From a phage, in NCBI GenBank assembly GCA_020279385.1, contig GCA_020279385.1_4762.1: DNA of 64,000 nt, one strand, 5' to 3'. Positions within the stretch are counted from its first letter, which is position 1; each line of letters begins with the position of its first letter. The notes beneath the pieces are model-generated. The model saw nothing but the letters and a program-made list of their open reading frames with translations, did not search any database and was not told the origin of the DNA. The position numbers and the translations under genes are program-made. This document shows, piece after piece, positions 6,378-12,818 of this stretch.

Positions 6378-7403
6378 CTAACTTTTTGCGTTATTTACTT
6401 CGGCTAAAAGTTCATCAGAAATACGCTTGACCGCCGCAAGTTCTTCCGGTTCTAGGTTTTGTTCTTCCAGATATTCATAGACCATCTGAATAGTGCTTTT
6501 AACTTCAATAACACCTGTTTCCTGTGATGCGCTACTCTCCAGTTTATGGACCACTTTTAGCTTGTGTACAACGGCCTCTAACGCGCTTTCTAACTTAGTT
6601 AATCCATTATCAGCGACCGTTGCGATAAGACGCACACTAAGCCCTTTAAAGCGTTCTACATCGATTTTATCATCTGACGGGTAAGTGATACGCACATGAT
6701 AAGTTTTGTCATTCTGAATAAACTCTTTTTTGTGTGTATCGGTATCGAATACCCAAAACCCACGCGGATCGTTTTCGTCACCCGCCGTTAGTGTGTATGG
6801 TGCACCAATATACGTTACGTTACCGCCATCACTGATAGTATGAAAGTGACCCGAAAACACTTCACGGTATTTCTTGAGGAAGTCCGCGCTATAACCTTCG
6901 GATTTTAGCCCTTTATAGAAATAGTAACCGGACAATTCCCAATGGCCTACACAATATTCGCTGAATGAGTTTTGAATAAACTCTAAAATCTCTGATTTAT
7001 TGTCATCACAAAACCACGGGAACAGATCAAATGATACACCATCAAAGGTAACTGTTTCAGGTTTATCAATGACCTTAATGCAATCATACTGGCTTAACAC
7101 TTCACGCGGTGCGTTAGGCTGGATCTTGTTTCGTTTAAACATATCATGATTCCCGACCGTGGTATAACAAGTAATATCAGCCTCTTCCAGTAACGGGATG
7201 ACCTTAGTACGGTTAAATTTCATGGTTTCATGGGTAATTGCTTTTCGGCAATCAAACCAATCCCCTGTTTGAATCCATGTCTTAATATTATGCTCTTTGG
7301 AGTATTCAACCGCTTTCTTGATGGTATCAAGAATATACTCATGCACCCACGGATCATCGCCACCGATACCAGTATGCAGATCACCTAAAAGCAAAATTTT
7401 CAT
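6378..7403 (-). CDS. 47: Recombination nuclease subunit gp47 (SbcD/Mre11-like phosphoesterase)
   Basis: 341 aa, MKILLLGDLH...GNHD metallophosphatase motifs. Confidence 0.95.
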   Translation of the reverse strand: MKILLLGDLHTGIGGDDPWVHEYILDTIKKAVEYSKEHNIKTWIQTGDWFDCRKAITHETMKFNRTKVIPLLEEADITCYTTVGNHDMFKRNKIQPNAPREVLSQYDCIKVIDKPETVTFDGVSFDLFPWFCDDNKSEILEFIQNSFSEYCVGHWELSGYYFYKGLKSEGYSADFLKKYREVFSGHFHTISDGGNVTYIGAPYTLTAGDENDPRGFWVFDTDTHKKEFIQNDKTYHVRITYPSDDKIDVERFKGLSVRLIATVADNGLTKLESALEAVVHKLKVVHKLESSASQETGVIEVKSTIQMVYEYLEEQNLEPEELAAVKRISDELLAEVNNAKS

Positions 7404-7448
7404 AGTCTCTTCCTCTCTTCGTTTTCGATGCTCTCACTATATCACAGA

Positions 7449-7473
7449 AAAATAAAAAGGGAAACCCCTTTCA
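7449..7473 (-). terminator. Putative intrinsic terminator
   Basis: AAAGGG-GTTT-CCCTTT hairpin followed by U-rich tract on minus strand. Confidence 0.4.
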
Positions 7474-7494
7474 GAGTCTCCCTTATAAAAGCCA

Positions 7495-7782
7495 TTACAG
7501 CATACTTAATACCGTTTGCCGTGTACTGACCCACATAGCAGAAAGCAGTTCTGGCGTGTGTGGCTGTTTGTAGATATCACGTAATTTTCCGATAGCGTAG
7601 ATATACGCATCACGGTTATCATCGATGATAGCTTGTTCAGCCCACCGCTTAAGGCGTGCAATCTCTCGCGAGTTCTTACGCAAGATCTTTTCCGCTTTCT
7701 TAGCGGCTTTAGCCTCTAGTTCTGCTTGTACTTTGTCTACTTCATTCACTGCAATCTGGTCATGCTGTTCATTGCAAGTCAT
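7495..7782 (-). CDS. Hypothetical protein
   Basis: 95-aa ORF between genes 55 and 47. Confidence 0.5.
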   Translation of the reverse strand: MTCNEQHDQIAVNEVDKVQAELEAKAAKKAEKILRKNSREIARLKRWAEQAIIDDNRDAYIYAIGKLRDIYKQPHTPELLSAMWVSTRQTVLSML

Positions 7783-7783
7783 A

Positions 7784-8017
7784 TTATTTTACCTCTGGGA
7801 TATAATCAATTATTAAAGAAAATTCATCTTCTGATACATTATAGCTATGTGAGATTGTACCCGTCAAGACCTCAAGATCCGGTGATTTGATATTGCACGG
7901 ATCGATAATCACCGGAACGCCGCAATCTCTCAAAAATAATTTGGCGAAATACGGCACGAGGTCAGTTTCAAACTCTGCTTCTTCCAGCAAACGGGAAATG
8001 TTAATTTTCAATCTCAT
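7784..8017 (-). CDS. Hypothetical protein
   Basis: 77-aa ORF between genes 55 and 47. Confidence 0.45.
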
Positions 8018-8534
8018 AAAATTGGTCCAGGCTAGGCAATTCCTCAGTCAATACATCTTCAACCTTTGGCGCTTTCGGTTTATTGACCGATTCCTCGTAG
8101 TTGTTGATTTTATCGTAAATGTCCTGTATGAATGCCTCATCAGCAATCTGGCACATATCAGCGTCGCGTTCGTCATATACATGATGCACAAAATATTTGT
8201 ATTTTGCGGCTGTCGCTGTTCTCTCTTTTTTAATGCGCTGTACAAAAGCATTAAAGCACGCTTGCGTGATGTAAGCATGAGGATTTTTATACTTTGTCTC
8301 GTCAAAATTAATCAAACCCTTGACCGCCGCTTCGATTCCGTCGTCGATCATTTCTTCGCGCCATGTTTGACTATAACCAGAAAAGTTAAAACGACGTGAT
8401 AGATTTTTAGAGATTTGCATAATTGCTAGGCCGATTTGATCGCTCATTGGAACTTGCCGACCTTCTGCTGCAATTTGTTGTTTCCAACGGCAAATTTCTT
8501 CGTAAAGCTCTTTATTGTTTACATAATCAGACAC
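8001..8534 (-). CDS. 55: Late-transcription sigma factor gp55
   Basis: YVNNKEL...[49 protein letters not shown] nearly identical to T4 gp55 blocks. Confidence 0.95.
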
Positions 8535-8574: not shown

Positions 8575-10044
8575 CTATTCCCCATTGCCATTATACTTTC
8601 TTTGCTTAGTTATCCACACTCTAACCATCTCTACTGATTCACCGTCAGACGGATCAAGAGTTTTTCCTTTTTTCTTCATGCGGTACTTAAATCCGTTAAA
8701 TCTTGCATTCTCTTGCTCGTTAAAGTCGAACATCTTTTTAAATGATTTTCGCCCTTTACGCTCACCGCATTCTAGCGGAATCATTCGGTCTGTTATTACA
8801 TTGGCATCAGGTAGAAACGTTTTTAGATAATCTACCAACGCCCAATCAGGAACATATAGATTAACATTCTCCTTGCTCTCGTTGTCTCTCAGGTTACAAC
8901 GCAAACATAATTGAAATGCTGGTTCCAGATAATCAGACACATGACGCGCTTTCAAAAACTCGTTTGTTGGGAGATCGCAACTATTAGCAAGACCTTTTAA
9001 AATATCAATCTCCCATCGTTGAGGGTTAAAGCTGAACATCACAGCAACATTTTTATGATGAATGTAAGAGTTAAGACCATAAGATCCGTAAGGTATCCGC
9101 TCACCAATACCATTTGTGCACGCTTCTCGGTCCCGATTAACGGTATAAATGAAGTCATCGCCACATTCATTTTTAACCATATCAACAAGACGTTCAAAGG
9201 TATTGTTTGTTTCTGACTGGTGACGCGACCAGCGTTCGGAGTCAGTCATAAGGATGATGTTAACTCTATCTGTATTTTTATACTCTTTGAAATATAGTCT
9301 GGATTCTAGCGCACTCGGAACAAAATCGCAATTTGCATAGTATCGTAGATACTTCCCGCTATATGTATCAAAGAGATTTGCACATGCTATCGTAACCTTT
9401 TTAAAGTCTCCCCACGTACCGTGTTTGTTATCGTTCAAGAAAACAATTTTCGACCCATTCTTCCGGTGTCCTTCGTTATGTTTTACCATAACGTTGATTT
9501 TCTTCTCTAATAACGCCTCATAAAGCCCTCTAAGAGAAGAATCGATCATATCAGTACCATCCTTTGCACTTTCTATCTTTTCTTTGATAGCGGCCTTCTC
9601 AGAGTCTTTTAGAACTAAGTTCTGTAGGCATTCCGATTCGTCGGCGATTGGTTCGCAATGCTTCGTGATAAGTTCAAGATTAGACTTAAACGGATACTCA
9701 TTAAATTCAACCAGTTGAGGAACTTCATCAATGTAAAGAGCATAATCACCAAACATTTTTGAACGTTCCATATTAGATAACGCTGTATGTGTAATGAATA
9801 TCACATCAGCACCGTCTTTAACTGATTGCATTATCGACGCTTGCACTGTCTTAAGGCTTCTTAGTCTGGTGCTATCAATCAAGACAGCACGACCGCCCAT
9901 TCTTTTAAACTTATTGTAAGATTGTTCACTTAAAACACGAGATGGCGAAGCAATAACCGCTTTTTCTTTTGTCTCTAGGACGTGGGAAAGTATAGCATCA
10001 GTTTTCCCCGCCGCTGGCAATGCGATTAATGTTTCAATCTTCAT
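8575..10044 (-). CDS. P-loop NTPase of unknown family (helicase/nuclease-like?)
   Basis: 489 aa; Walker A LPAAGKTD at residues 9-16, Walker B YIDEVP about residue 110; no T4 counterpart recognised. Confidence 0.75.
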   Translation of the reverse strand: MKIETLIALPAAGKTDAILSHVLETKEKAVIASPSRVLSEQSYNKFKRMGGRAVLIDSTRLRSLKTVQASIMQSVKDGADVIFITHTALSNMERSKMFGDYALYIDEVPQLVEFNEYPFKSNLELITKHCEPIADESECLQNLVLKDSEKAAIKEKIESAKDGTDMIDSSLRGLYEALLEKKINVMVKHNEGHRKNGSKIVFLNDNKHGTWGDFKKVTIACANLFDTYSGKYLRYYANCDFVPSALESRLYFKEYKNTDRVNIILMTDSERWSRHQSETNNTFERLVDMVKNECGDDFIYTVNRDREACTNGIGERIPYGSYGLNSYIHHKNVAVMFSFNPQRWEIDILKGLANSCDLPTNEFLKARHVSDYLEPAFQLCLRCNLRDNESKENVNLYVPDWALVDYLKTFLPDANVITDRMIPLECGERKGRKSFKKMFDFNEQENARFNGFKYRMKKKGKTLDPSDGESVEMVRVWITKQRKYNGNGE

Positions 10045-10331
10045 TAGAAACCCTTACGTCGTGCTTTCTGGCATTTCTTGATCATTTTATCAGAAATTTC
10101 GCGCTTAGGTGCAATCTCTTTCACACCGAAAGCACTAATGCCAAATTCAGAGAGAATATATTCAACTAACAATTCACGCACACGCGCTTTACCGATATTC
10201 ACGCCGTTATTTTTCAGATATGTCTGGCCTTCGACTTGCATCAGATCTAAATCTGCGTCGGTAATATTGATTTCTTCCATGCGCCCAAATCGAGAATAAA
10301 CCATGTGTGCGATTGCATTGTGTACTAACAT
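10044..10331 (-). CDS. Hypothetical protein
   Basis: Start reset to ATG 10331 preceded by GAGGAATATATT. Confidence 0.5.
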   Translation of the reverse strand: MLVHNAIAHMVYSRFGRMEEINITDADLDLMQVEGQTYLKNNGVNIGKARVRELLVEYILSEFGISAFGVKEIAPKREISDKMIKKCQKARRKGF

Positions 10332-10352
10332 AATATATTCCTCACTCAAGAA

Positions 10353-10460
10353 TTACTTAATGATACTTACTTTACCAGATCCATGACAATGAGCGCAACA
10401 CCCATCACCACGCAATCCTGTTCCGTTACAGTGTTTACACTTCTTCAACGGTAAAGCCAT
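10353..10460 (-). CDS. Small zinc-finger peptide (35 aa, 2x CxxCxGxG)
   Basis: MALPLKKCKHCNGTGLRGDGCCAHCHGSGKVSIIK; below ORF-track size cut-off; no clear SD. Confidence 0.3.
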   Translation of the reverse strand: MALPLKKCKHCNGTGLRGDGCCAHCHGSGKVSIIK

Positions 10461-10500
10461 TATAGCAAATAAAGCAATAATGAATACCGAAACTAAATTC

Positions 10501-10770
10501 TCAATAATCATAAATCGCCCTCAGTTCTTTATAGCCTCCAATGTGCTCGTTGTCAATGAATATCTGGGGGTATACAAACCGGAGGCTCTTTGAGTTTAGC
10601 CTCCCCGCCAGTTCTTCAATCATATCACGGTCGGGAATAATGTCAACCCCGACCTGCTTGAATACTGGTTTAAGTGTATACGGAATACCCAGATCATCCA
10701 GTAGCTTCATTGCACTAATACAACCATAACAATGATAAGCCTCTTTCGGTATACCGTATATCTCGATCAT
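10501..10770 (-). CDS. nrdH: Glutaredoxin-like protein (NrdH-like)
   Basis: 89 aa, CYGC redox motif, C-terminal YPQIFIDNEHIGGY glutaredoxin signature. Confidence 0.8.
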   Translation of the reverse strand: MIEIYGIPKEAYHCYGCISAMKLLDDLGIPYTLKPVFKQVGVDIIPDRDMIEELAGRLNSKSLRFVYPQIFIDNEHIGGYKELRAIYDY

Positions 10771-11249
10771 TTCTCAGCCTTTAATCTTTCTAGTTCTTCT
10801 TCCAGTTCCTTGATCCGTTGGTCACGTTCAAAGTCACGCTGTAACTTAGTGGCAAATACTCGCTTAAACTGATTGTAATCATCGATTTTAAACACTTCTT
10901 CTTCGCCATAGCGACGCACAGAAACTTCGTAGTTATTGAAGAATTGTTGCATCATTGCATCAGTAGTCAGTTCTGACGACACCACTTTAAAATAACGTTC
11001 TTCTGATTGCAAAAACCAGTTGTGCGCGTATTCCCGTACATCATCAACATTGCGGCAGGGGTATACCGTGCCATCAATTTCAATCACAGAAACATAATCG
11101 ATATCTGGTTCATGGCGATCAAACGCAATAACTTTAAATGGACGGTCTCCGATAAACTCTGCTATTGCATCATTTGCAACGCTAGAGTTTGCAAAATCTT
11201 CTCTCGTTTTATAATCTTTCCACTGATAGGTCATACCAACAACAAACAT
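10767..11249 (-). CDS. Paralog family A protein (MxWExGKTY family)
   Basis: Shares FANSS..A..IGDRPFKV core and C-terminal coiled coil with next three genes; start reset to ATG 11249 after GAGG. Confidence 0.6.
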   Translation of the reverse strand: MFVVGMTYQWKDYKTREDFANSSVANDAIAEFIGDRPFKVIAFDRHEPDIDYVSVIEIDGTVYPCRNVDDVREYAHNWFLQSEERYFKVVSSELTTDAMMQQFFNNYEVSVRRYGEEEVFKIDDYNQFKRVFATKLQRDFERDQRIKELEEELERLKAEK

Positions 11250-11250
11250 A

Positions 11251-11799
11251 TTACCAACCTCGCTCTTCACCAATCAAAAATTCAACTTCACGACGTTTAA
11301 TATCTTCTTGAAGGTCTTTAATCTTCTGGCGATCTTGCATGATTTCGTCCATCTTGTCAAGTGCTGCAATAAAATCATCGAAACGTTCAAAGGTTTTACC
11401 TTCATTTGCTTCGCCAAATTTAACCATTGTCAGACCATAACGACTACTAAACAGACGTTTCAACTGTCCAACGATCTTAGAATCATCGTTCACCTTTTCT
11501 TCTGGTTCTTTCACTGTTTCAACTTCACGAAAGAATTTTCTATCGAATGGACTAAAGAAATATGTTGCAGTCCAAATGTCTTTTCCTGTAGCAGTTTTCG
11601 CCGTATGATAAACACCGTCTAGCTCTATTGCATCAATCCATCCGTTACCCTCGATCTCGATGATGGTAAATGGCTTGTCACCAATAGCTGCACTAATATC
11701 GCTGTTAAGTGGAGAAAGAACACCTTCTCCGTTAGTAATAAACTCAGTTTTAGCGTTTTCATCTTTCCAAGTGTAAGTTTTACCAATTTCCCATTTCAT
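11251..11799 (-). CDS. Paralog family A protein
   Basis: MKWEIGKTYTWKD...; tandem paralog. Confidence 0.65.
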   Translation of the reverse strand: MKWEIGKTYTWKDENAKTEFITNGEGVLSPLNSDISAAIGDKPFTIIEIEGNGWIDAIELDGVYHTAKTATGKDIWTATYFFSPFDRKFFREVETVKEPEEKVNDDSKIVGQLKRLFSSRYGLTMVKFGEANEGKTFERFDDFIAALDKMDEIMQDRQKIKDLQEDIKRREVEFLIGEERGW

Positions 11800-11811
11800 A
11801 ATATATTCCCC

Positions 11812-12276
11812 TTAACCGATTTTATCAAGTTCGTTTAATGCTTTCTCTGCTTCCTGTATAGCTTGCACCCTTTCCGGCATTTTGTCAAGAAAATCTTTCA
11901 ACTCTTCAAAACTGGAGATATGACGCAAGGCGTTAGCACCGATAGCCGCATGTGATTTGCATTCAAAGCGGATTTTATAATTATCCATCGCCAACTTGAG
12001 AAGATCAATTAATTTAGATTCTTCTGGAATAATAATTTCTTCAAATCTGCTACGGTCATGATCCAGAAACCAACAAGATAGACCTACATCGGTTGAACTC
12101 ATATAAGTTCCATCATGAAGATAAACAGACCGCACGTATCCTTTTTTCGCATCAACCGACGCAACTTTAAACGGTAATCTCAGATATTTCAAATAATCAA
12201 CATCATACCATTTAAAAAATTGGTTTGCATCTTTTACATCTTTCCACGCATAGGTCTTACCAGCTTCCCATTTCAT
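11812..12276 (-). CDS. Paralog family A protein
   Basis: MKWEAGKTYAWKD... from ATG 12276. Confidence 0.6.
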   Translation of the reverse strand: MKWEAGKTYAWKDVKDANQFFKWYDVDYLKYLRLPFKVASVDAKKGYVRSVYLHDGTYMSSTDVGLSCWFLDHDRSRFEEIIIPEESKLIDLLKLAMDNYKIRFECKSHAAIGANALRHISSFEELKDFLDKMPERVQAIQEAEKALNELDKIG

Positions 12277-12280
12277 AATA

Positions 12281-12808
12281 TCATCTCTCATTTTTGATAC
12301 GTGATTCTAATTGGATCATACGGTCGCGCGTTTGTTTGTATTCTCGGATAGCACCGATCCGGCTAGGCATACCATCCAGTACGCTCTTAATACCTTCTAG
12401 GGTAGTAATTTTGGCAATGCTATTATGTAACCCCATCTTATCGATCAACTGAATGTCGTAGGCTTCCATAAGCAGACCCAGTCGTTCTAAAGTTAGGTCT
12501 TCTTCTTTTTCTTCCGAATCTGGAATCTTAGGTTCAATAGTAACTTCGGTAAAGAAACGACGCTCACCTGCCCAAAACCACACGCCGGAACAGCCAATAG
12601 GGGATTCTTTTAACGTCATAGAGTCGAAATTACTACCAATAATAGTAATTTCTCTAACATCACCATCATCGTCAAGGTCTTCTACCCTAAACGGGCGACC
12701 AGCCAACAAGTCAACAATACATCTGTTAATAGACGACGAAAATTTAGTCAGTTCGGCTTTCGACGCTTCGCATTCAATCTTGTAAGTTTTACCAACTTCC
12801 CATTCCAT
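12281..12808 (-). CDS. Paralog family A protein
   Basis: MEWEVGKTYKIE... from ATG 12808 after GAGGTG. Confidence 0.65.
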   Translation of the reverse strand: MEWEVGKTYKIECEASKAELTKFSSSINRCIVDLLAGRPFRVEDLDDDGDVREITIIGSNFDSMTLKESPIGCSGVWFWAGERRFFTEVTIEPKIPDSEEKEEDLTLERLGLLMEAYDIQLIDKMGLHNSIAKITTLEGIKSVLDGMPSRIGAIREYKQTRDRMIQLESRIKNER

Positions 12809-12818
12809 AATAATCACC

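Follow-up and report, generated by a model that had tools for sequence, protein, structure and literature searches.

What does a T4-like phage do with a 489-residue protein that is encoded where T4 itself carries only small open reading frames (ORFs)? The question is raised by a 64,000-nucleotide stretch of phage DNA (contig GCA_020279385.1_4762.1 of assembly GCA_020279385.1), referred to below as the window, which belongs to a phage of the Krischvirus type (RB49/Phi1/JSE-type coliphages). On its minus strand, positions 8575..10044 hold an ORF of 489 aa that runs from ATG to stop, with gene 55 for the late sigma factor (8001..8534, minus strand) 40 nt downstream and nrdH (10501..10770) upstream. 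An original prediction, made from the letters of the window and a list of its ORFs, had described this ORF and its place in the gene 55–nrdH interval correctly. It treated the product as an orphan P-loop NTPase, possibly a helicase/nuclease-like enzyme of defence or counter-defence. On the present analysis, the gene encodes an uncharacterised accessory DNA helicase from an already predicted mobile-element family, and it is less unusual than first thought. The best explanation, in which we place about even confidence, is that the product is an active superfamily 2 (SF2) DNA helicase/translocase of this family that serves to start or prime replication or to process recombination intermediates.

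Motifs and predicted fold of the gene product

Conservation was read from an alignment of 43 close homologues and from a broad alignment of 78 diverse members that share 14-43% identity; all features of the gene given below lie on the minus strand. Motif I (Walker A) is located at the extreme N-terminus, as had been predicted, and occupies residues 8-15 (ALPAAGKT, with G13, K14 and T15; 10000..10023), fitting the pattern [AG]xxxxGK[ST]. The last three of these residues are invariant in the close homologues and K14 also in the diverse members. Because the motif begins at residue 8, there is no space for a Q-motif. A motif Ia-like segment at residues 32-42 (ASPSRVLSEQS; 9919..9951) has S33, L38 and S42 invariant in the close homologues (consensus ASxSRxLSxQS) and aligns with PTxxLxxQ of the broad family and with the corresponding segment of PriA. 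It is followed in the 43-homologue alignment by a further conserved segment, FITHxAL, at residues 83-89. Motif II (Walker B), previously noticed as a Walker B-like YIDEVP, is LYIDEVP at residues 103-109 (9718..9738), a 'DExP' box and not DEAD or DEAH; D106 and E107 do not vary in any alignment, and the hhhDE[VI]P signature is kept in distant family members.

The roughly 370 residues that follow had been regarded as free of recognisable motifs, a description that no longer applies. In the predicted model, secondary structure delimits an insertion of about 106 aa (residues 110-215; 9400..9717) that separates motif II from motif III in RecA domain 1 and may be an arch-like accessory domain. Beyond it lies a motif III-like strand, VTIACAN, at residues 217-223 (9376..9396; model strand 216-221), in which T218 and N223 are conserved in at least 90% of sequences. 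RecA-like domain 2 extends over about residues 255-425 (8770..9282) and contains an [H/Y]-G-L-N element at residues 322-325 (9070..9081), a candidate motif V. G323 and N325 are invariant in the close homologues; among the diverse members N325 is invariant and G323 is conserved in at least 90%. Motif VI with its arginine fingers is found at residues 377-386 (FQLCLRCNLR; 8887..8916), where Q378, R382 and R386 are invariant in both alignments. Within the 43 homologues the conserved stretches of motif I, the motif III-like strand, candidate motif V and motif VI read PAAGKT (residues 10-15), VTIAxAN, HGLN and FQLCxRxxxR. The protein ends in a basic helical tail (residues 430-489; 8578..8757) with helices at 443-458 and 468-486 and an invariant W477; the basic tail is kept out to the bacterial members P0056-P0062. 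Over the 78 diverse members invariance is limited to K14, D106, E107, N325, Q378, R382 and R386, and the family signature AxxxxGK[TS] ... hhhDE[VI]P ... QxxxRxxxR holds throughout. These are the residues that an SF2 NTPase site requires, which implies selection for catalysis throughout the family. The protein is a real and conserved helicase and is probably active, as predicted from these residues.

The sequence and fold features of an SF2 enzyme are present: two tandem RecA-like domains, motifs I and II, motif VI and a match, marginal in score, to a curated SF2 model. This model is Pfam PF00270 (DEAD/DEAH), which matches residues 11-130 with 27.3 bits against a cut-off of 26 and is the sole Pfam family over its cut-off; relatives of the protein exceed the cut-offs of the DEAD and ResIII families. 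A broad family profile, in which the window protein is combined with 133 distant relatives, retrieves PriA (E=1.4e-6), DEAD-box proteins, Mfd, reverse gyrase, UvrB and RecG from the PDB sequences, each over motifs I-II only. The window protein alone and the 43-sequence profile give no match among PDB sequences, and the window protein gives none in NCBIfam. Of the earlier 'helicase/nuclease-like' label, the helicase half is borne out by the motifs, the marginal DEAD match and the fold, and the nuclease half has to be dropped, as the protein contains no nuclease domain or motif.

The fold was examined in an AlphaFold2 model built from the 43-sequence alignment (mean pLDDT 88.5, pTM 0.78), which is composed of RecA domain 1 with the inserted residues, RecA domain 2 and the basic helical tail. 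A Foldseek comparison with the PDB, a check that the original prediction had proposed, places CasDinG, XPD and DinG at the top (E 1e-10 to 1e-7). Matches of the XPD/DinG class align over 311-347 residues as compared with about 250 for generic SF2 proteins, that is, over 60-100 residues more than the other SF2 matches. Structural matches to DEAD-box proteins span one RecA domain only, about 140 residues. The fold of the predicted model is therefore closest to that of the Rad3-like helicases XPD/Rad3/DinG/CasDinG, with which it has in common two RecA domains and an accessory domain placed in RecA1 after motif II, the topological position of the arch. The Rad3-like helicases are 5'-3' DNA translocases whose arch domain is inserted at this place in RecA1 (for CasDinG, PMC10450177), and CasDinG and Staphylococcus aureus DinG resemble the window protein in having no functional iron-sulphur (Fe-S) cluster.

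The differences from XPD and DinG are nevertheless considerable. The window protein has no Fe-S domain, with about 60 residues between motifs Ia and II, and its conserved cysteines are limited to C130 and C380 in the 43 homologues, none being invariant in the 78 diverse members. Motif II reads DEVP and not DEAH, neither Pfam DEAD_2 nor Helicase_C_2 matches at E<=1, and the length is 489 aa against 550-750. Since the four conserved cysteines and a family Pfam match are lacking, motif II is DEVP and the broad profile retrieves no XPD or DinG within its best 60 PDB sequences, the protein, as modelled, is XPD/DinG-like in architecture and not a member of that family.

Distribution, inheritance and the wider family

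The protein is far from an orphan. Searches by tblastn found it in 244 phage records (238 at full length), mostly of Straboviridae, and every one of these records labels it 'hypothetical protein'. Full-length homologues share 35-74% identity and the gene has a GC content of 0.39 and a third-position GC content (GC3) of 0.37, like its neighbours, so that a chance ORF can be dismissed. The protein is 99.8% identical to the JSE 'hypothetical protein' ACL77994.1. Identity is 35-42% for the homologues encoded by T4-like phages of Aeromonas (44RR, 25, Aeh1, Tulanevirus), Cronobacter, Citrobacter, Enterobacter, Klebsiella, Serratia, Proteus, Providencia, Morganella and Erwinia and by RB43-like coliphages. 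The survey of T4-like phages that had been suggested earlier separates these carriers from T4 and the other T-even phages, in which tblastn finds no homologue (T4 was checked directly). T4 is the reference for the replication of large lytic phages, and most non-T-even T4-like genera carry this extra, conserved and, judging from its residues, apparently active helicase. The carriers include the RB49/JSE/Phi1-type coliphages, of which Phi1 was isolated for phage therapy, and phages of Aeromonas, Cronobacter, Citrobacter, Enterobacter, Klebsiella, Serratia, Proteus and Erwinia. The main value of the finding lies in annotation, as the name SF2 helicase would improve 244 'hypothetical protein' records, and in the question of what task an extra helicase performs in many T4-like phages.

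The gene appears to be a long-standing resident of its position. In the window it is directly preceded by a homologue of T4 55.2 (10044..10349, minus strand; Pfam DUF7570, E=1.4e-28), which is 42% identical to T4 gp55.2 (E=1.5e-19). The order 55.2 homologue, helicase, 55 is found in both JSE and Aeh1. Serratia phage Muldoon has an equal layout, with an ORF upstream of the helicase that resembles 55.2 weakly, and in Aeromonas phage 50AhydR13PP two genes are added between the 55.2 homologue and the helicase (a hypothetical ORF and a 'DprA-like' gene). Gene 55 is annotated in the same relative position in all four of these phages, and the order is kept across four genera. The position is inside the pre-replicative block of replication and recombination genes, flanked on one side by gene 55 and the recombination nuclease genes 46/47 and on the opposite side by the nrd genes. 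Between genera the helicase is 38-42% identical, compared with 41-56% for gp55, 49-52% for gp47 and 38% for NrdH. The helicase has diverged about as much as its core neighbours and is therefore an old, vertically inherited resident of the locus in the non-T-even T4-like phages, not recent cargo, as judged from these sequence comparisons. T4 has only small ORFs in this interval, as had been stated (nrdH, 55.6 to 55.3, 55.2, 55.1, 55), and the slot that matches the helicase gene is filled by the small gene 55.1. Between 55.2 and 55 of T4, a search for a remnant of the helicase gave none, and gp55.1 has no similarity to the helicase. T4 gp55.2 is an inhibitor of topoisomerase I, and 55.1 acts on host FolD and UvrA and interferes with host nucleotide excision repair (PMC4396842).

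Beyond the T4-like phages, the window protein matches PHROG 2467, a family of 'unknown function', from end to end (E=3e-175; protein 1-489, profile 8-502 of 502). A profile search of 1.84 billion cluster representatives (50% identity) recovered 1,368 relatives, 810 of them at E<=1e-10, which fall into two main sizes of about 480-550 aa (short forms) and about 750-890 aa (long forms). A survey of archaeo-eukaryotic primases (AEPs) of mobile elements by Kazlauskas et al. in 2018 (J Mol Biol 430:737; PMC5862659) predicted a 'pVOG1685/9714-like' helicase family, uncharacterised, with remote SF2 similarity only and fused to AEPs in the order primase, zinc finger, helicase; pVOG9714 members were described as most similar to herpesvirus UL9. 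The PHROG 2467 family is almost certainly the same family. The equation is suggested by the full-length PHROG 2467 match, the occurrence of homologues in T4-like phages and SPbeta and the primase fusions, and it is supported through YonV of SPbeta (410 aa, hypothetical), which the broad profile matches end to end (hmmsearch E=6e-15; hhalign 97.7%, 368 columns). Neither the SPbeta protein YorI ('replicative DNA helicase') nor any of five further SPbeta candidates is matched by profile, leaving YonV as the only match. The existence of a new helicase family had therefore been predicted already; its members seem not to have been characterised and are still called 'hypothetical' in genome records. 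The fusions found here differ from the published ones in having the reverse order, helicase first and primase-like module last, and the window protein differs from both in being a stand-alone core with a short basic tail.

The long forms include P0049, P0075 (locus L007, 8001-10508) and gp191 of the jumbo Agrobacterium phage Atu_ph07 (locus L012, 4995-7283). Their helicase part is N-terminal and is followed by a primase-like module and a four-helix bundle. The model of P0049 (pLDDT 89.2) has an XPD/CasDinG-like core, with XPD and CasDinG as its best Foldseek matches. The C-terminal module of the long forms consists of a beta-rich domain and then the four-helix bundle, and carries the conserved elements LDxDGG, RYRV, GxDxxK and FYLPC. 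When the module was compared with the PHROG 'DNA primase' families, phrog_9765 was matched by 13 of 15 members (best E 1e-12), phrog_2135 by nine and phrog_17236 by three, and on this basis the long forms can be read as helicase-primase fusions. Pfam returned a faint PriCT_1 match only (two of 15 members, E about 0.1), a profile search of PDB sequences gave no match to the module, and Foldseek, whose output for the long form was dominated by the helicase core, did not identify the module by fold. In rarer variants (P0125, P0151), N-terminal extensions of 370-400 aa are present. That of P0125 matched no known domain, and the published N-terminal primase order was not reproduced. An analogous combination is found in IEE of enterohaemorrhagic Escherichia coli, in which an AEP PrimPol is joined to an SF2 domain that has DNA-dependent ATPase and no helicase activity (Calvo et al. 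2023, PMC9943667). IEE resembles the long forms in joining an AEP-type primase/polymerase to an SF2 ATPase on an integrative element. As its AEP part is N-terminal, the opposite order, and its helicase domain is of the DEAH type and RadD-like, with no unwinding reported, IEE was rejected as a homologue and is kept as an analogue.

Some short forms carry a different C-terminal part. P0095 (residues 437-472) and P0066 (461-496) end in a homeodomain-like helix-turn-helix (HTH) domain, HTH_23 (E=2.6e-5 and 2.3e-4), which suggests sequence-specific DNA binding in those members. The tail of the window protein has no detectable homology to these HTH tails (hhalign probability 0.1%). Bacterial short forms reside on islands of about 11.5 kb together with a DUF6538-type integrase and a resolvase. 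The Neptuniibacter island (L008, 7689-19383) is bounded by duplicated signal recognition particle RNA genes and the Oceanisphaera island (L006, 3645-15280) by duplicated tRNA genes, and the two look like a small, undescribed island class. In the 146 kb phage-like contig that contains locus L009, the locus holds 11 copies of AAAATATC where 1.8 would be expected, and six same-strand copies form an iteron-like array directly downstream of the helicase-like gene, within 485 bp (9533-10017). To judge from the repeats, the helicase encoded next to this stretch may use it as an origin of replication. Taken together, the primase-like fusions, the HTH tails, the islands and the iteron-like array indicate that the job of the family is most likely the starting or priming of replication of mobile elements. 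The family is apparently tied to DNA replication, and with about 1,370 clusters at 50% identity it recurs in phages and integrative islands as a module linked to replication.

Four unrelated distant relatives are followed by 0.94-1.17 kb in which no gene is called (L006, 11507-12449; L008, 11642-12629; L009, 9498-10671, also in L010; L012, 7284-8272). Three of these stretches are somewhat richer in AT than the flanking DNA; none has a match in Rfam, and no hidden primase module was detected in such gaps of about 1 kb beside distant relatives or anywhere in the window. In L009 (5610-7931) and L012 (2639-4725), the helicase-like gene is preceded by genes for a DNA methyltransferase and for a protein of 370-495 aa; the latter protein has a CapR domain in L009, and the three-gene arrangement recurs in two distant phage contexts.

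Roles considered for the helicase

For the window protein, a role in replication or recombination would work as follows. The gene would be transcribed early, together with the 55.2 homologue and just upstream of gene 55. Nucleoside triphosphate would be bound and hydrolysed at the interface of the RecA domains by K14/T15, D106/E107, Q378, R382 and R386, and the enzyme would move along single-stranded DNA, probably 5' to 3' by analogy with XPD, DinG and CasDinG, separating duplex DNA or DNA-RNA hybrids against the domain inserted in RecA1. The T4-like phages already have a T4-type replisome (gp41, gp61, Dda and UvsW); beside it, the enzyme would be an accessory helicase working on its own, either to initiate replication or to handle the intermediates of recombination-dependent replication. 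UvsW is likewise an SF2 enzyme of T4-like phages and acts on replication and recombination intermediates, whereas Dda (SF1B) and gp41 (DnaB-like) belong to other superfamilies; UvsW, Dda and gp41 are early or middle functions, as the window protein would be. The near-identical phage Phi1 has dda, 41 and 61 as separate genes, and a replacement of a missing T4 helicase by the window protein was rejected on that ground. Knowledge of what the helicase does would show whether replication, recombination or repair in the carriers departs from the T4 model.

Several observations weigh against this explanation. The link to XPD and DinG is one of fold alone, in a protein with neither Fe-S cluster nor DEAH box, and the 60 best PDB sequence matches of the broad profile include neither XPD nor DinG; the polarity can therefore be proposed only weakly. 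Neither a primase module nor a recognisable DNA-binding tail is present in the window protein, and no iteron array or non-coding stretch adjoins its gene. The phage already encodes a complete T4-type replisome, so that a role in replication would be accessory or redundant, and the T-even phages manage without the gene. Moreover, some primase-linked SF2 'helicase' domains, such as that of IEE, hydrolyse ATP without unwinding (PMC9943667), and the literature search found no experimental study of any family member.

A bolder version of the proposal, which we consider rather improbable, is that the helicase is the dedicated replication initiator of the non-T-even T4-like phages and recognises and opens specific origins, as do UL9 or the Rep of a phage satellite. 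UL9 has an SF2 core followed by a DNA-binding C-terminal part and is a viral replication initiator, and some short-form relatives are HTH-tailed. The UL9 family itself (PF02399, Herpes_ori_bp) is absent at E<=1 from the window protein, YonV and eight other members, and, in a further difference from UL9, no origin-like DNA adjoins the helicase gene in the window, where iterons, repeats and structured RNA do not exceed chance. Given that there is no primase module, no DNA-binding motif in the tail and no adjacent non-coding DNA, an origin-binding role is speculative. Were it true, a large part of Straboviridae would start replication differently from T4, and the T-even lineage would have lost its initiator, with the small host-modulating 55.1 in its place. 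T4 starts replication from R-loops and by recombination and is not known to have an initiator protein.

Other activities would fit the same fold. A repair or conflict-resolution helicase like DinG or XPD, clearing R-loops, D-loops and stalled complexes for replication, recombination (gp46/47) and replication-coupled late transcription (gp55), is unlikely, with several points in its favour: DinG, XPD/Rad3 and CasDinG are the best fold matches, the gene lies between 46/47 with 55 and the nrd genes, a 'DprA-like' gene directly upstream overlaps the helicase start in Tulanevirus, and the T4 occupant of the slot, 55.1, interferes with host excision repair (PMC4396842). The likeness to these enzymes is nevertheless at the level of fold, without their Fe-S cluster or DEAH box, a slot in common with 55.1 is not homology, and, over the whole family, primase-like modules and integrative elements are the associated features and repair genes are not. 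R-loops, furthermore, are already unwound in T4 by UvsW, an enzyme reported present across T4-like phages. The same primase-like fusions, which recur in the family, would also suit a DNA-dependent ATPase that does not unwind and serves as a motor or clamp to place or remodel a primase, a polymerase or a DNA-topology factor of the gp55.2 type. The ATPase of IEE sets a precedent for this (PMC9943667), and the helicase start overlaps the stop of the 55.2 homologue. We think it quite improbable, however, as no relationship of IEE, with its opposite domain order and DEAH helicase, to the family has been demonstrated, the closest structural relatives XPD, DinG and CasDinG truly unwind, and the inserted domain occupies the position of the strand-separating arch domain.

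The counter-defence role proposed originally (or one in superinfection exclusion or defence), for example the stripping or misleading of a host DNA-targeting immune complex, found no positive support and is decidedly improbable. What speaks for it is that carriers appear to lack the genes for hydroxymethyl-cytosine and glucosylation and may need other protection. In Phi1 (1-27000), gene 42 and beta-gt are both absent from the interval between uvsX and 43, and JSE has no a-gt, a gene content that would fit DNA free of hydroxymethylation and glucosylation. In addition, two distant relatives adjoin DNA methyltransferase genes, and the gene is missing from T-even phages and hence dispensable for the T4 way of life. 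Against this, the PADLOC models gave one noise match to the window protein (E=0.009, to an unrelated model) and, for ten relatives, weak and generic matches over the P-loop region only (best E=1e-6), a comparison in which the long forms were also rejected as Hna. Neither the protein nor a partner gene supplies an effector domain such as a nuclease, protease or TIR domain, the neighbours being the 55.2 homologue and gene 55. Fixed synteny, vertical inheritance and neighbour-like composition are unlike anti-defence cargo of fast turnover, and the domains fused in the family are primase-like. A DEAD-box-type RNA helicase or chaperone acting on phage or host transcripts is hardly credible. PF00270 is the sole Pfam family over its cut-off and DEAD-box proteins are among the sequence and fold matches; this model, however, is a generic one for SF2 RecA1 and its match is marginal, and the structural matches cover a single RecA domain. 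The Q-motif has no room before the Walker A, the motifs DEAD, SAT and HRIGR are replaced by DEVP, xAN and QxxxRxxxR, and the family is associated with DNA primase modules. An accessory DNA helicase for replication or recombination thus remains the preferred reading.

Transcription and minor features of the locus

A candidate sigma-70-type (early) promoter is located at 10619..10646 on the minus strand, upstream of the unit orf52 - 55.2 - helicase (- 55). It is composed of TTGACA, a 16 nt spacer, TG and TATGAT, and matches the consensus at 11 of 12 positions. Promoters and terminators near the gene were called by consensus scans only; such scans find no T4 late promoter (TATAAATA) close to the helicase gene and call no terminator between it and gene 55. 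From the candidate promoter and these two negative scans, the helicase gene is probably transcribed early. The stop codon of the 55.2 homologue and the start codon of the helicase share one base in the sequence TAATG, which suggests translational coupling of the two genes.

In Tulanevirus phages of Aeromonas, the gene directly upstream, which overlaps the helicase start codon, is annotated as a 'DprA-like DNA recombination-mediator protein' (L005 3429-4004, 50AhydR13PP). Its product may be a functional partner of the helicase in that lineage. On the other side of gene 55, the window keeps homologues of a-gt.4 and a-gt.5 beside that gene (7400-8000), with no a-gt gene.

Two further features lie upstream of the 55.2 homologue. 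Between it and nrdH, a 52-aa ORF (10353-10511, minus strand) encodes a hydrophobic N-terminal helix and a zinc-ribbon-like CxxC...CxxC motif; it matches PHROG 3931 ('unknown function'), the remaining matches being at noise level. Between nrdH and nrdG, four tandem ORFs of 159-182 aa (10767-12817, minus strand) are mutual paralogues at 27-37% identity and constitute a locally amplified gene family. All four are 'hypothetical' in JSE, and their products have in common an N-terminal 'W-E-x-G-K-T-Y-x-W-K' start.

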